Shown piece after piece: positions 1,871 through 5,478 of a stretch of DNA of 5,478 nt. The number at the start of each line of letters is the position of its first letter. Within the stretch, counting starts at the first letter, position 1. The DNA comes from Promethearchaeota archaeon. GTDB taxonomy: Archaea; Asgardarchaeota; Sifarchaeia; Borrarchaeales; Borrarchaeaceae. Under the pieces are notes generated by a model. It searched no databases and was not told where the DNA came from. It was given only the letters and a program-made list of their open reading frames with translations. The position numbers and the translations under genes were made by a program. The DNA is taken from assembly GCA_048940375.1 (NCBI GenBank), contig JBHLOP010000147.1:1-5478 (forward strand), written 5' to 3'.

Positions 1871-2809
1871 ATTCGCATTACGTTGTTAAGTGGAGGGACT
1901 GGTACTCCAAAATTACTACAAGGTCTTATAAGGCTTGTTTCTGAGGAAAATTTAACAATAATTTGCAATACTGCAGATGATTACTATTTTTATGGTCTTT
2001 ATGTCTGTCCAGACATTGATTCTGTACTCTACTGCCTAAAAAGTTTTTTAGATGAAGAAAAATGGTGGGGGATAAAAGGCGACACTTTTAACTGTCTTGA
2101 AATGTTAAAACTATATGGTTATGATCCATGGTTTCAATTAGGGGATCGCGATCTTGCGCTTCATATCCATAGAACGCGTTTATTAAATGAAGGTCTTTCT
2201 TTATCTGAGATTATCAATGATGTCTGCATGCGCTTGAATATAGCGCCTCATGTAATTCCCATGACTGATCAGAAAGTCACCACAATGGTCTTCACTGACA
2301 AGGGTAAATTGAATTTTCAAGAGTTTTGGGTACGGGAACATGCAAATGTAAAGGTATTCTCAGTCGAATTTGAAGGAATTAGTAGAGCAGAGCCAACCCA
2401 AGATGTAATTGACTCAATTATAGAAAGTGATGCCATAATTATCGGACCAAGTAATCCTGTTACCTCAATAGGGCCTATTCTGGAAGTACAAGGTGTCAAA
2501 ACAGCCTTAGAAAGGACGCAAGGCATGAAAATCGCGATTTCTCCTATAATCGGAGAACAACCATTGAGCGGTCCTGCAGGTCAACTTATGGAGACTCAAA
2601 ATCTTAGTGTTTCTCCGTATGCTATTGCAAAGATCTATTCGAACTTCTTAGACGTTCTAATTATACATAGTACTGATAAAGGATTGGTTCCTCAAATTGA
2701 AGAACTTGGAATTTCTGTGGTTTTAACTAACATCATAATGAAGAGCCTTGATGATAAAATCAATCTAGCCCAAGAAATCCTTCGTTTAATTGAGGAAAAA
2801 ACATGTTAA
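1871..2809 (+). CDS. cofD: 2-phospho-L-lactate transferase (LPPG:FO 2-phospho-L-lactate transferase), coenzyme F420 biosynthesis
   Basis: The protein shows the CofD family pattern throughout: LSGGTGTPKLLQGL, CPDIDSVLY, WWGIKGDTF, FQLGDRDLALHIHRT, IPMTDQKVTT, IIGPSNPVTSIGPIL, ISPIIGEQPLSGPAGQLM. The frame opens after TAG 1808-1810. I place the start at ATT 1871 from SD spacing and N-terminal completeness (IRITLLSGGTG). The track start, TTG 1883, is the conservative alternative. The stop is TAA 2807-2809. Confidence 0.9.
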   Translation: MRITLLSGGTGTPKLLQGLIRLVSEENLTIICNTADDYYFYGLYVCPDIDSVLYCLKSFLDEEKWWGIKGDTFNCLEMLKLYGYDPWFQLGDRDLALHIHRTRLLNEGLSLSEIINDVCMRLNIAPHVIPMTDQKVTTMVFTDKGKLNFQEFWVREHANVKVFSVEFEGISRAEPTQDVIDSIIESDAIIIGPSNPVTSIGPILEVQGVKTALERTQGMKIAISPIIGEQPLSGPAGQLMETQNLSVSPYAIAKIYSNFLDVLIIHSTDKGLVPQIEELGISVVLTNIIMKSLDDKINLAQEILRLIEEKTC

Positions 2810-3603
2810 AGTTGCAAAATCCTGCAATACTATCCGCAATAGCAGGAGTTACTAATGGCGATTTTTGTGCACGAGTTGCGAAAGCTGGGGCTGGTATGAT
2901 CACTCTTGGCGGATTTAATTTTGATAAAGCAACGCTTAGCGCAGCAAGACTGATCACAACTAGAGAAAGGCCAGAATTTATTATAGCTCTCGAGGAACTG
3001 CCAGAATATACTGAACGTCAAGTTTCAGTTGCCCGTGAAGGAAAAACTCTCGTAAATATAAATATACGTGTTTCCTCAAGAAATGGATTACTTCTGGCAG
3101 CAAAAATATCACAGGATTCAGGTGCGGATGCTCTTGAACTAAATGCACATTGTAGGCAACCGGAAATTATTGATCTAGGAACTGGACAAGCACTCCTAAA
3201 AAACTCCAAAAAATTGTGTCAGTGGATTAAAATCCTCAAAAATAATGTGAATATCCCTCTAATTGTTAAAATTCGGGCAAACATTGTTGATGAAGTGACT
3301 TTAGTGAAAAAGATAGTTATAGCAGGTGCAGATGCTATTCATGTCGATGCAATGAAACCTGGATATCCTTACGCTGACTTAGACATTATAAAAAGGATAT
3401 CCTACAATGTCGATACATTTTTGATAGGTAATAATTCTGTAAAAGACATTAATTCAGCAATACAAATGCTGAACGCCGGTGCCGATGCATTTTCTATTGC
3501 TAGGGCTGCTATTAATAATCCTGAAATAGTTGGGCAAATTGGGAACGCTATAATGAAAGAATTCAAAGAAAGATTAAAAAAACGTTACATTCTCTTTAAG
3601 TAA
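2803..3603 (+). CDS. Archaeal Dus/NifR3-like FMN-dependent TIM-barrel oxidoreductase (dihydrouridine-synthase / dihydroorotate-dehydrogenase superfamily); precise substrate unknown
   Basis: 266 aa. The motif LELNAHCRQPEIIDLGTGQALL parallels the Dus motif (D/E)-x-N-x-G-C-P...G-x-G-x-x-L-L, including the catalytic Cys. This is followed by IPLIVKIR (the FMN-contacting K-x-R strand), GADAIHVDA, and LIGNNSV...GADAFSIARAAINNPEI (the phosphate-binding C-terminal strands). As I recall, short, exclusively archaeal NifR3-related TIM-barrel proteins form a recognised family. ATG 2803 overlaps the cofD stop (ATGTTAA), and GAGG lies 7 nt upstream. Confidence 0.7.
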   Translation: MLKLQNPAILSAIAGVTNGDFCARVAKAGAGMITLGGFNFDKATLSAARLITTRERPEFIIALEELPEYTERQVSVAREGKTLVNINIRVSSRNGLLLAAKISQDSGADALELNAHCRQPEIIDLGTGQALLKNSKKLCQWIKILKNNVNIPLIVKIRANIVDEVTLVKKIVIAGADAIHVDAMKPGYPYADLDIIKRISYNVDTFLIGNNSVKDINSAIQMLNAGADAFSIARAAINNPEIVGQIGNAIMKEFKERLKKRYILFK

Positions 3604-4085
3604 GCTGGGACTTCAAGTACTTCAATGTAAAATTCACATTCAGGGTCTCCTTTTCCATAGCACCTGATCTCGCGCACAAGACATCGTCTGTCTTTTAATC
3701 GTTCAATGACACCTGAAATGAGTCCTGTTTCAAAGCTACATGCAGGCTTTCCTAGATTTGGCAGACCTGCAGATGATAGGGTCTCCAATAATATCAGATT
3801 TCCATTTCCTTTATCTGAATCAAATGAAAATGTTTTTGTTCTTGCAATACCTTTCTTTTCCATCCACTGCAAAAATTCTTCGAATTCCTTAAATTTTGTT
3901 CTCCTACCCAATGCTTTACCACCCGCATAAGCTAGTGTTTTTGACGCATCCTCTCCAACGACATCACGTAGGCTGAATAAACTTAATGCTCTGAATAGTC
4001 GAATGTCGATAGTTGCGCCTAAATTAGGCCGGTCAACAATATCAAGTTCTGGCATTCTAACCTTTTCCAATATTCCCAACTCCAA
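3585..4085 (-). CDS. Stand-alone V4R (4-vinyl reductase) domain protein, predicted small-molecule-binding
   Basis: The C-terminal half, ETLSSAGLPNLGKPACSFETGLISGVIERLKDRRCLVREIRCYGKGDPECEFYIEV, fits the V4R pattern E-x...C-x-x-x-x-G-x-x-x-G...E-x-x-C-x-x-x-G-D-x-x-C-x-F. The N-terminal half (LFRALSL...GEDASKTLAYAGGKALG) matches the helical part of COG1719-type hydrocarbon-binding proteins. The start is uncertain: TTG 4085 (track) or ATG 4055. The stop is TAA (3587-3585). Confidence 0.75.
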   Translation of the reverse strand: MELGILEKVRMPELDIVDRPNLGATIDIRLFRALSLFSLRDVVGEDASKTLAYAGGKALGRRTKFKEFEEFLQWMEKKGIARTKTFSFDSDKGNGNLILLETLSSAGLPNLGKPACSFETGLISGVIERLKDRRCLVREIRCYGKGDPECEFYIEVLEVPAYLKRM

Positions 4086-4133
4086 AAAGTAAGATAACCA
4101 TTAGTCCTTATGTCATCTCACCTTTCGACCTAG

Positions 4134-4138
4134 AAAAA
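4134..4138 (-). terminator. Oligo-T (T5) run 15 nt downstream of the leuB-like stop on the minus strand
   Basis: Minus strand reads TAA tttcttccaaaagaTTTTTctagg. This is a weak signal. The V4R gene 67 nt downstream may still be co-transcribed. Confidence 0.3.
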
Positions 4139-4152
4139 TCTTTTGGAAGAAA

Positions 4153-5169
4153 TTAAAATCTGGAAAGTAACTCTCTTATGAAGTCGTTCGTAGTATTTTT
4201 ACCGCCAAGATCTGGAGTTCTAATGTTGGTTTCTTCATATATTTGTAAAATAGAGTTTTCAAGATCTTTTGCTGCCTGTTTTGCATCATTTATCGAATAT
4301 TTTTCACTTAGCCAATCTAGCATCATCGAGCAACTTAACAATATTGCAGTAGGATTCGCTATACCCTTTCCTTCAATATCAAAAGCCGCACCATGGACTG
4401 GTTCAAACATAGCAATATCCTGTCCGAGGTTTGCAGAAGGAAGAATGCCCAAACTTCCAGTCACCCCTGCAGCTTCATCGCTTAGAATATCTCCAAACAT
4501 GTTAGTAGTAACTAGGGTATCAAATTGTTGAGGATTAATCACCAGTTGGTATGCTGCGTTATCTACATACATTTCGTTTATATCGATCTCACTAAAATTC
4601 TTTGCAATTTCTATGCAGACATTTCGAAAGAATATGCAACTTATCATCACATTAGCCTTATGAACAATAGTTAGTTTTTTGCGCCTTTCCTTTGCTATTT
4701 TACAAGCAACAGTCATGATACGTTCAGTTGCTTCCTTTGTGATCATTCGAACATTAATCGCACATTCTTTTGTTATATCTTCTATTTTCTTATAGAGCCC
4801 CTCAGTATTTTCTCTAACAATTACCAAGTCAACTCCTGAATGAATACTCGGAATGACAGGAATAGTTTTTGCGGGCCTGATGTTTGCGAAGAGGTTGAGT
4901 TCTTGTCTAAGGGGCAAAACTACGTATCTTGCTGTTTCACCAATCGGTGCTTTCAGGCAACATGAACACTTTTTAATTTCGTCTATGGCATTACTGGGCA
5001 ATGCATGACCAGTTTCCTTTAGAGCCTTGTCACCTGCAAATATCTCCTTAAACCGAAAGGAAAAATTATATTTATCTGATAACATCTCAAGCACTTTGCT
5101 TGTAGCAGTAGTTATCTCAGGTCCAATTCCATCCCCTGAAATAACGGCGATTTCAAATGTCTTTGTCAT
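4153..5169 (-). CDS. leuB: 3-isopropylmalate / homoisocitrate dehydrogenase family enzyme (short archaeal LeuB type beta-decarboxylating dehydrogenase)
   Basis: Family signature NMFGDILSDEAAGVTGSLGILPSANLG, plus GDGIGPEI, LRQELNLFANIRPAK, VIVRENTEGLY, HKANVM, YVDNAAYQL and FEPVHGAAFDIEGKGIANP. All substrate- and metal-binding R/Y/K/D positions appear present. I prefer ATG 5169 (MTKTFEIAVISGDGIGPE) over the track's GTG 5178, because that GTG is part of a GTGAT SD-like element 4 nt upstream of the ATG. Substrate specificity (isopropylmalate, homoisocitrate or AksF-like) cannot be decided by eye. Confidence 0.85.
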   Translation of the reverse strand: MTKTFEIAVISGDGIGPEITTATSKVLEMLSDKYNFSFRFKEIFAGDKALKETGHALPSNAIDEIKKCSCCLKAPIGETARYVVLPLRQELNLFANIRPAKTIPVIPSIHSGVDLVIVRENTEGLYKKIEDITKECAINVRMITKEATERIMTVACKIAKERRKKLTIVHKANVMISCIFFRNVCIEIAKNFSEIDINEMYVDNAAYQLVINPQQFDTLVTTNMFGDILSDEAAGVTGSLGILPSANLGQDIAMFEPVHGAAFDIEGKGIANPTAILLSCSMMLDWLSEKYSINDAKQAAKDLENSILQIYEETNIRTPDLGGKNTTNDFIRELLSRF

Positions 5170-5214
5170 ACTTATCACATTGAACGATGATAGCTAAAAA
5201 GTGTTAGTGTAATC

Positions 5215-5222: not shown

Positions 5223-5295
5223 CGTATGTCTTTCCTCGCTATTTACAGAAGACTAAAATTCATAGTGGCATTTGACCTTTGTAAACGGTGATATT

Positions 5296-5478
5296 TTGAA
5301 CATATATGCGCTTATTCCATTGAAAAAATTGGAGAATTCAAAAACACGCATAAGCAATTTATCTCTTGAATCTCGAAAAATGCTTACCAAAGCTATGCTT
5401 TGTGATGTAGTTCAATCAACTTTAGAAGCAAAAAATATCAGCGAAACTTTTGTGATGTCACCAGATCAGGAGATAGTT
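5296..5478 (+). CDS. cofC: 2-phospho-L-lactate guanylyltransferase (CofC), N-terminal 61 codons; 3' end runs off the window
   Basis: Absent from the ORF track because there is no stop codon inside the window. Manual translation from TTG 5296: (M)NIYALIPLKKLENSKTRISNLSLESRKMLTKAMLCDVVQSTLEAKNISETFVMSPDQEIV. This matches the CofC N-terminal pattern x-A-(I/L)-IP-(V/L)-K-x-L-x-x-(A/S)-K-(S/T)-R-(L/I)...L-x-x-x-x-R-x-x-L-x-x-A-M-L-x-D-V. The frame opens after TAG 5263-5265. GGTGAT (5287-5292) lies 3 nt upstream of TTG 5296. An alternative TTG is at 5272. Confidence 0.75.
   Translation, partial: MNIYALIPLKKLENSKTRISNLSLESRKMLTKAMLCDVVQSTLEAKNISETFVMSPDQEIV

Follow-up and report, generated by a model that had tools for sequence, protein, structure and literature searches.

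The window analysed here, 5,478 nt in length, spans positions 1 to 5,478 of contig JBHLOP010000147.1 (assembly GCA_048940375.1, forward strand) from a Promethearchaeota archaeon of the Borrarchaeaceae, and this work concerns one of its genes, here called X, which is joined to the coenzyme F420 biosynthesis gene cofD. The cofD gene, encoding a 308-aa 2-phospho-L-lactate/enolpyruvyl transferase, lies on the + strand at 1883..2809 and was identified with TIGR01819 (340.5 bits, as compared with an equivalog cut-off of 257) and PF01933 (2.8e-53). X follows on the same strand at 2803..3603; it was taken from the open reading frame (ORF) list with an ATG start, and its 266-aa product was assigned to the MJ0144 family of Dus/DHOD-like TIM barrels by TIGR00736 and PF01207. 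The two coding sequences share the 7 nt ATGTTAA (2803-2809, + strand), which can be read directly as the end of cofD (...ACA TGT TAA) and as the start of X (ATG TTA AAG), and a Shine–Dalgarno-like GAGG motif is found within the cofD coding sequence at 2792-2795 (+ strand), 7 nt before the ATG of X. This is the layout expected of translational coupling, and so tight a start/stop overlap suggests stoichiometric co-production of the two proteins and perhaps hand-over of a product. About 1.7 kb past X, also on the + strand, the first ~70 codons of cofC (5272..5478, start probably the TTG at 5272 or 5296) run off the end of the window; this fragment and the start of the full-length CofC encoded at a related locus (L001, 12636-13304; PF01983, 6.9e-30) are near-identical. 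A first-pass annotation made from the letters alone had described the overlap, the ribosome-binding motif and the more distant cofC, and all three were found in place.

Family, fold and conserved residues of X

With homologues of up to 89–91 % identity, and with the family under strong purifying conservation, X is a real gene. The MJ0144 family comprises 64 clusters at 50 % identity (E <= 1e-30). X reached the cut-off of the NCBIfam model TIGR00736, 'MJ0144 family RNA dihydrouridine synthase-like protein' (221.0 bits, cut-off 218.7), which NCBI rates as a hypothetical equivalog, and it matched the Pfam Dus profile PF01207 with 3.7e-24 and 85.8 bits (gathering threshold 20.4) over profile positions 49-237 of 311 only. 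The scores against the Dus equivalog models were below their cut-offs (79.3 vs 293.3 for DusB, 40.1 vs 397.2 for DusA and 25.6 vs 395 for DusC). The MJ0144 group was defined as 'archaeal Dus' by bioinformatics alone (Kasprzak 2012), an assignment that later reviews repeat, and was described there as having NxHC(K/R) where Dus enzymes have NxGCP, and HxD where they have HxR. X carries this signature as NAHCR (114-118) and HVD (180-182), both invariant in family alignments A1 and A2.

In its AlphaFold model (pLDDT 91.9) X folds as a (beta/alpha)8 barrel whose chain stops ~30 residues past strand 8, with only short extra helices at 234-261. Since the barrel terminates so soon after strand 8, and the Pfam match ends at profile position 237 of 311, X lacks the tRNA-binding helical domain that forms the C-terminus of Dus; the members of the MJ0144 family measure 235-270 aa, as compared with 305-340 aa for Dus. 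The solved structures nearest to the model were the DHODB PyrD (5ksw, E 4.5e-13, TM 0.76), Old Yellow Enzymes, Dus and dihydropyrimidine dehydrogenase, all of them flavin enzymes working on a C=C bond conjugated to a carbonyl or carboxylate, while no solved structure was found for any member of the MJ0144 family. Starting from the best fold match, we tried X as a class 1 DHOD, which was ruled out by the scores against PF01180 (17.3 vs 27 bits) and NF005574 (47.6 vs 269). The Pfam search gave no match of X to the nitroreductase family PF00881, and the modelled fold is a TIM barrel. The class 1B enzyme PyrD, whose partner PyrK carries Fe-S and FAD, is the best structural match and uses a Cys as acid/base on a C=C bond conjugated to a carboxylate or carbonyl, but X resembles it in fold only and differs from it in scoring below the cut-offs of the PF01180 and PyrD models, in its Arg-rich active-site set and in its genomic context.

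From Asgard archaea through Halobacteria to methanogens, residues R56, F59, R89, E112, N114, H116, C117, R118, Q119, K156, R158, H180, D182, N211, S231 and R234 were invariant. The family alignment placed the catalytic loop, ELNAHCRQPE, at residues 112-121 (3136..3165, + strand), with Cys117 as the putative proton donor; its invariant pattern, ExNxHCRQ, aligned with INMGCPAKK, the DusB loop that holds the catalytic Cys. The segment KIRAN (residues 156-160; 3268..3282, + strand) holds K156 and R158, which correspond to the KxR of Dus in the alignment with DusB and DusC and in the published motif (Kasprzak 2012), and C117 and K156 aligned with the Cys and Lys that DusB and DusC use for catalysis. 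The family-specific HxD that replaces the Dus HxR lies in HVDAMKPG (residues 180-187; 3340..3363, + strand), with H180 and D182 invariant, and GNNS (residues 209-212; 3427..3438, + strand) lies behind barrel strand 7, with N211 invariant in alignment A2 and G209-S212 in A1. The invariant R56, R89, R118, R158 and R234, which are predicted to surround Cys117 and Lys156, would suit an anionic phospho-carboxylate substrate. Membership of the Dus/DHOD flavin superfamily, a catalytic Cys in NAHCRQP and the lack of the Dus helical domain in the 266-aa ORF had each been proposed from the sequence, and agree, respectively, with the profile and fold matches, with the invariance of C117 and its alignment with the DusB catalytic Cys, and with the Pfam coverage and the AlphaFold model.

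Read as annotated, X would be an archaeal synthase of dihydrouridine in tRNA or another RNA, and its adjacency to cofD would be meaningless. DusA/B/C and Dus1-4 (PF01207, COG0042) are the closest sequence relatives of X (DusB, 3e-15 in a profile search), sharing with it the FMN (flavin mononucleotide) barrel, the Cys and the Lys/Arg of KxR, and the Pfam Dus score, the retention of these residues and the placing of the family in 'archaeal Dus' by Kasprzak 2012 and later reviews all speak for this reading. That classification is, however, purely bioinformatic, and X departs from the Dus enzymes in the absence of the helical tRNA-binding domain, in having NxHCRQ for NxGCP and HxD for HxR, in equivalog scores far under the cut-offs for DusA, DusB and DusC and in its place in an F420 operon. 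The isoelectric points within the MJ0144 family spread from 4.8 to 9.6, some members being strongly acidic. Moreover, dihydrouridine is reported to be missing from the tRNA of Haloferax volcanii, whereas the family occurs widely among Halobacteria (a comparison at the level of the class and not of the gene content of H. volcanii itself), and hyperthermophilic archaea have little or no dihydrouridine, yet it was a gene of Methanocaldococcus jannaschii that gave the family its name. Adding that X has stayed close to cofD through the rearrangement of operons in five or more lineages, as described below, we regard a dihydrouridine synthase as a very improbable identity for X.

Gene neighbourhood of X across archaea

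The gene context of X was compared across 167 related loci, drawn from both genomes and metagenomes, two duplicates being left out; neighbours were annotated with purpose-built profiles and cross-checked by Pfam and NCBIfam, and the loci were binned at 60 % identity of X. For the haloarchaeal loci, which have a high GC content, the supplied gene calls were used in place of the simple ORF caller. In the Asgard and 'Thermoproteota' loci cofD was immediately upstream (-1) of X in 28/28 cases, mostly with an overlap of 1-7 nt; the usual overlap in the Asgard loci was 4-7 nt, and most of them showed one of 4 or 7 nt. Within this set, five Asgard groups (Borr-/Sif-, Frey-/Jord-/Loki- and Baldrarchaeia, and others) showed the order cofE-cofD-X-cofC or, in the Borr- and Sifarchaeia, cofD-X followed by two reverse-strand genes so that cofC comes three genes on, and the 'Thermoproteota' group showed the rearranged order cofD-X-cofC-cofE. 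All six haloarchaeal genera sampled (Halovivax, Halorubrum, Halococcus, Haloarcula, Haladaptatus and one Haloquadratum-like; 6/6) carried cofD-X-CitG-like-DUF447 as overlapping genes. In the Methanobacteriales the order was purO-cofE-cofD-arfA-X-atwA-mmp9-sirC-hemA, with arfA (GTP cyclohydrolase III) at -1 in 92/92 loci and cofD at -2 in 85 of the 92. Both in the Halobacteria and in the Methanobacteriales cofC lay outside the X locus, while the linkage between cofD and X persisted. As the genes flanking the cof-X block vary by lineage, the linkage of cofD and X is maintained through rearrangement and is not mere inherited gene order.

Methanoperedens and other Methanosarcinales-like lineages had X fused to a methanogenesis marker 9 domain, with a cof neighbour in 0/33 loci, and in one singleton (L151) the region upstream of X held no cof neighbour and the contig stopped at X. 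The first-pass annotation had made the recurrence of the adjacency to cofD in relatives a test of its proposal; the adjacency recurred strongly in the Asgard and 'Thermoproteota' loci, in the genera of Halobacteria and, separated by a single gene, in the Methanobacteriales, but not in the Methanosarcinales-like lineages, whose unlinked and marker 9-fused X it had not foreseen. In agreement with its further statement that archaeal CofE comes without a reductase domain, the CofE proteins of the Asgard and 'Thermoproteota' operons are single-domain proteins of about 250 aa that carry PF01996 only, with no nitroreductase domain. The named carriers of the MJ0144 family are all from F420-associated lineages, a qualitative observation on named taxa and not a genome-by-genome profile. 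We consider X to be, almost certainly, a protein of F420 biosynthesis.

Several other features accompany these operons. The CitG-like gene (PF01874) and DUF447 complete an overlapping four-gene operon in the haloarchaeal loci L084, L085, L086, L087, L168 and L169; we take both families to be tied to methanopterin clusters in methylotrophs, and the haloarchaeal carriers presumably make no methanopterin. A conserved protein of ~144 aa adjoins cofE in Frey-, Jord- and Lokiarchaeial F420 operons (L005 7636-8070, L007 7760-8161, L008 7610-8044 and others) and adjoins X in L006; it gave no Pfam or NCBIfam match and may be a further member of the F420 cluster. A haloarchaeal metagenome contig (P0305) was considered as a CofD-X fusion and rejected, the middle part being low-complexity wrong-frame sequence and the fusion most likely a frameshift or gene-call artefact; the contig still shows the C-terminus of cofD contiguous with X.

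Methanogenesis marker 9 and other fusions of X

Fusions of X with marker 9 (TIGR03277) were found in Methanoperedens and in several divergent Methanosarcinales-like clusters (L046, 9950-11074; about 35 other loci, e.g. L100 and L150), and the marker 9 domain contains two Cys-rich motifs of the CCPPxKPCP type. In the Methanobacteriales marker 9 is a separate gene (mmp9), two genes past X and tightly coupled to atwA, the gene for component A2 of methyl-coenzyme M reductase (MCR) (e.g. L017, 12494-12970). Judged by its Cys content alone, the fused domain suggests a dedicated electron-input module for X in methanogens, and the occurrence of a Cys-rich Mmp9 either separate from or fused to X recalls the arrangement of PyrK with PyrD. 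For the X~Mmp9 fusion of Methanoperedens, AlphaFold gave a pLDDT <50 over the Mmp9 part, and the model was uninformative on cluster binding and domain docking. The X~Mmp9 gene of Methanoperedens is divergent from complex I genes of the NuoA/NuoB type, which were taken to be the fpo (F420H2 dehydrogenase) operon. In a cluster of 10 metagenomic members (P0250) the C-terminus of X is fused to a GGACT/AIG2-like gamma-glutamyl cyclotransferase domain (PF06094, 6e-11), a suggestive partner since F420 bears a gamma-glutamyl tail.

These partners raise the possibility that X carries out some other flavin redox step, namely supply of FO or riboflavin precursors, handling of the gamma-glutamyl tail, or electron transfer for the activation or modification of MCR together with marker 9 and component A2. 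The constant position of arfA and the atwA-mmp9 pair downstream in the Methanobacteriales, the X~Mmp9 fusions in several divergent clusters and the one cluster fused to the GGACT domain are in line with such a step, but Asgard archaea and Halobacteria, which are without MCR, keep cofD-X, and the cofD-X-cofC core would be left unexplained, and we consider it improbable. Within this possibility, a role in riboflavin or FO precursor supply, suggested by the adjacency of arfA, was tried and ranked low because the Asgard, 'Thermoproteota' and haloarchaeal operons without arfA retain cofD-X; the reductase of the riboflavin pathway in archaea has, moreover, already been identified with MJ0671.

The proposed reduction step in archaeal F420 biosynthesis

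Bacteria start the F420 side chain from phosphoenolpyruvate (PEP), and FbiB, through its C-terminal nitroreductase domain, carries out the reduction of dehydro-F420-0 (Bashiri 2019). The same authors wrote that they 'cannot explain' the archaeal reduction, and proposed a reductase not yet known; the context search of that study covered PF00881 near cofE only, so that a TIM-barrel reductase would have been invisible to it. A 2021 review still gave the lactate kinase CofB as unidentified, the origin of phospholactate in haloarchaea has been called an open issue with no candidate named (Pfeiffer and Dyall-Smith 2021), and M. jannaschii CofC and CofD (MjCofC and MjCofD) expressed in yeast yielded only dehydro-F420-0, the archaeal reductase being described as 'yet-unknown' (Lee 2024). 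The statement of the first-pass annotation that neither an archaeal reductase nor a lactate kinase has been assigned thus still holds in the searched literature. Our search found no paper pairing cofD or F420 terms with dihydrouridine synthase, and 'MJ0144' was without a match; the link between the MJ0144 family and F420 is new relative to the literature searched.

The predicted fold and catalytic residues of X fit an enzyme that reduces a C=C bond in conjugation with a carboxylate; in the F420 pathway, the obvious bond of this kind is that of the PEP-derived enolpyruvyl group. We therefore put forward X as a candidate FMN-dependent ene-reductase of the Dus/DHOD superfamily for the F420 side chain and not for tRNA, acting most likely on dehydro-F420-0, a reading that we hold with a little better than even confidence; as a candidate, it had been named from the window alone and is supported by the conserved synteny and the missing helical domain. 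Dehydro-F420-0 is favoured as the substrate because X is found with cofD in every linked lineage, even where cofC lies elsewhere. In the proposed sequence, CofC would activate PEP with GTP, and CofD would move the enolpyruvyl phosphate onto FO to give dehydro-F420-0. X would then transfer a hydride from reduced FMN to the terminal CH2 of the enolpyruvyl group while Cys117 protonates C2, yielding the L-lactyl group of F420-0, after which CofE would glutamylate F420-0. In methanogens the Cys-rich marker 9 domain, whether fused to X or encoded nearby, may supply the flavin with electrons. What the analysis shows is the family and fold of X, its conserved catalytic residues, its lack of a tRNA-binding domain and its operon linkage to cofD, cofC and cofE; that X binds FMN, what its substrate and electron donor are, and the whole of its chemistry are what we infer here.

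The nearest functional counterparts are FbiB's C-terminal domain and the stand-alone nitroreductase (NTR) enzymes of Thermomicrobia, which resemble X in the proposed FMNH2-dependent reduction of dehydro-F420-0 and in their association with cofC, cofD and cofE. The FbiB type has the nitroreductase fold PF00881 and is fused to cofE, whereas X is a (beta/alpha)8 barrel coupled to cofD with a predicted catalytic Cys; X would be a non-homologous replacement of the FbiB domain, an analogue and not a homologue. The closest chemical precedent is MurB, a flavin enzyme that converts an enolpyruvyl to a lactyl group with hydride going to C3 and a proton to C2, and which is likened to X here by description only; MurB uses flavin adenine dinucleotide (FAD), its fold is unrelated, the enolpyruvate on which it acts is ether-linked, and its product is D-lactyl.

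The main rival concerns the substrate, and the present data fit both. X could reduce PEP itself before guanylylation, with a hydride from FMNH2 going to C3 and a proton from Cys117 to C2, and so produce free 2-phospho-L-lactate (2-PL) for CofC in place of a lactate kinase 'CofB'. That most Asgard and 'Thermoproteota' loci have X placed between cofD and cofC is consistent with such a PEP reductase, as are the compact single-domain barrel and the many invariant Arg residues, which fit a small tri-anionic substrate; it would also reconcile the preference of archaeal CofC and CofD for 2-PL with a kinase that was never found, and would explain why 2-PL is reportedly a natural product of methanogens. 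Against it, X tracks cofD and not cofC, the latter being off-locus in Halobacteria and Methanobacteriales, and the production of free 2-PL could be costly since 2-PL inhibits enzymes of central metabolism (Bashiri 2019). Weighing these points, we judge reduction of free PEP to be unlikely, though a serious contender. An L-lactate kinase, the postulated 'CofB', addresses the same gap in the pathway as X, the source of the lactyl phosphate, but was conceived as a GTP-dependent kinase, whereas X shows none of the nucleotide-binding features of a kinase and would act as a reductase.

Several observations weigh against an ene-reductase acting on dehydro-F420-0. Both 2-phospholactate and a GTP-dependent phosphorylation of lactate have reportedly been found in methanogen extracts. 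Extracts reportedly phosphorylated labelled lactate, and this older tracer and extract work favours direct use of lactate, which counts also against the reduction of free PEP. M. jannaschii CofC and CofD prefer 2-phospho-L-lactate, with PEP a minor substrate only (Hasan 2022), and if archaea truly start from 2-PL a reductase of dehydro-F420-0 is unneeded. On the genomic side, X is unlinked from cof genes throughout the Methanosarcinales-like clade of 36 loci (0/33), and the presence of atwA and mmp9 after X in the Methanobacteriales could indicate a role related to MCR; given the clade with Mmp9 fusions and the neighbouring atwA, X may have a further role, or another one, in methanogens. Finally, X matches the Pfam Dus model well above threshold. 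We see an even chance that the whole 'archaeal Dus' family is misnamed and that it is the missing FMN TIM-barrel reductase of archaeal F420 biosynthesis, aided by marker 9 in methanogens and converting the enolpyruvyl to the lactyl group.

Other genes of the window

The window has a G+C content of 36.5 % and is matched by contigs of Candidatus Borrarchaeum (Asgard archaea), with ~90 % protein identity over X. At its left end a polysaccharide-deacetylase-like gene on the - strand is cut off, followed by a gene for a FixH/YtkA-like membrane protein (586-1116, - strand; weak Pfam matches). This protein has a signal or anchor segment at its N-terminus and, at its C-terminus, a membrane helix with the Lys/Arg run KKKKRKRK behind it. 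Its gene adjoins rpoH also in the related loci L001 and L004. Upstream of cofD, on the + strand, a gene at 1246-1815 encodes a two-domain RpoH/Rpo5 of 189 aa, whose N-terminus is an Mrr_cat/restriction-endonuclease-like domain (PF04471, 8.8e-12) followed by Rpb5_C. Its residues 37-188 aligned with ~55-209 of plant and human RPB5, covering much of the eukaryote-type N-terminal domain, whereas the archaeal Rpo5/H chains in solved structures have only 77-84 aa. On the strength of this alignment, the Asgard archaeon carries a predicted eukaryote-like two-domain Rpb5, which is kept in L001 and L004. Between X and cofC, the - strand (3585-5178) encodes a V4R-domain protein and a member of the isopropylmalate/homoisocitrate dehydrogenase family, an insertion found in Borr- and Sifarchaeia only; the V4R protein has an MsvR-like C-terminus, and in the window its gene and X share 19 nt at their 3' ends.

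Implications for archaeal F420 biosynthesis

F420 is needed for methane production in methanogens and is relevant to antibiotic biosynthesis and biocatalysis, and the archaeal route to it has contained a gap for years, CofB never having been found and the reductase being called unknown in papers from 2019 to 2024. X offers a specific, lineage-conserved and easily expressed candidate that is directly testable by liquid chromatography-mass spectrometry (LC-MS) within a week. If our reading is true, cofC, cofD, X and cofE could form an all-archaeal gene set for heterologous F420 production, and the orphan methanogenesis marker 9 would gain its first function, or at least a first functional lead. 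The label 'tRNA-dihydrouridine synthase', which is spreading across the family through archaeal genomes and reviews of RNA modification, would be corrected, and most archaea would be without a dedicated Dus. Archaea, like bacteria, would then begin the F420 side chain from PEP, and the controversy over 2-phospholactate and CofB would be settled.

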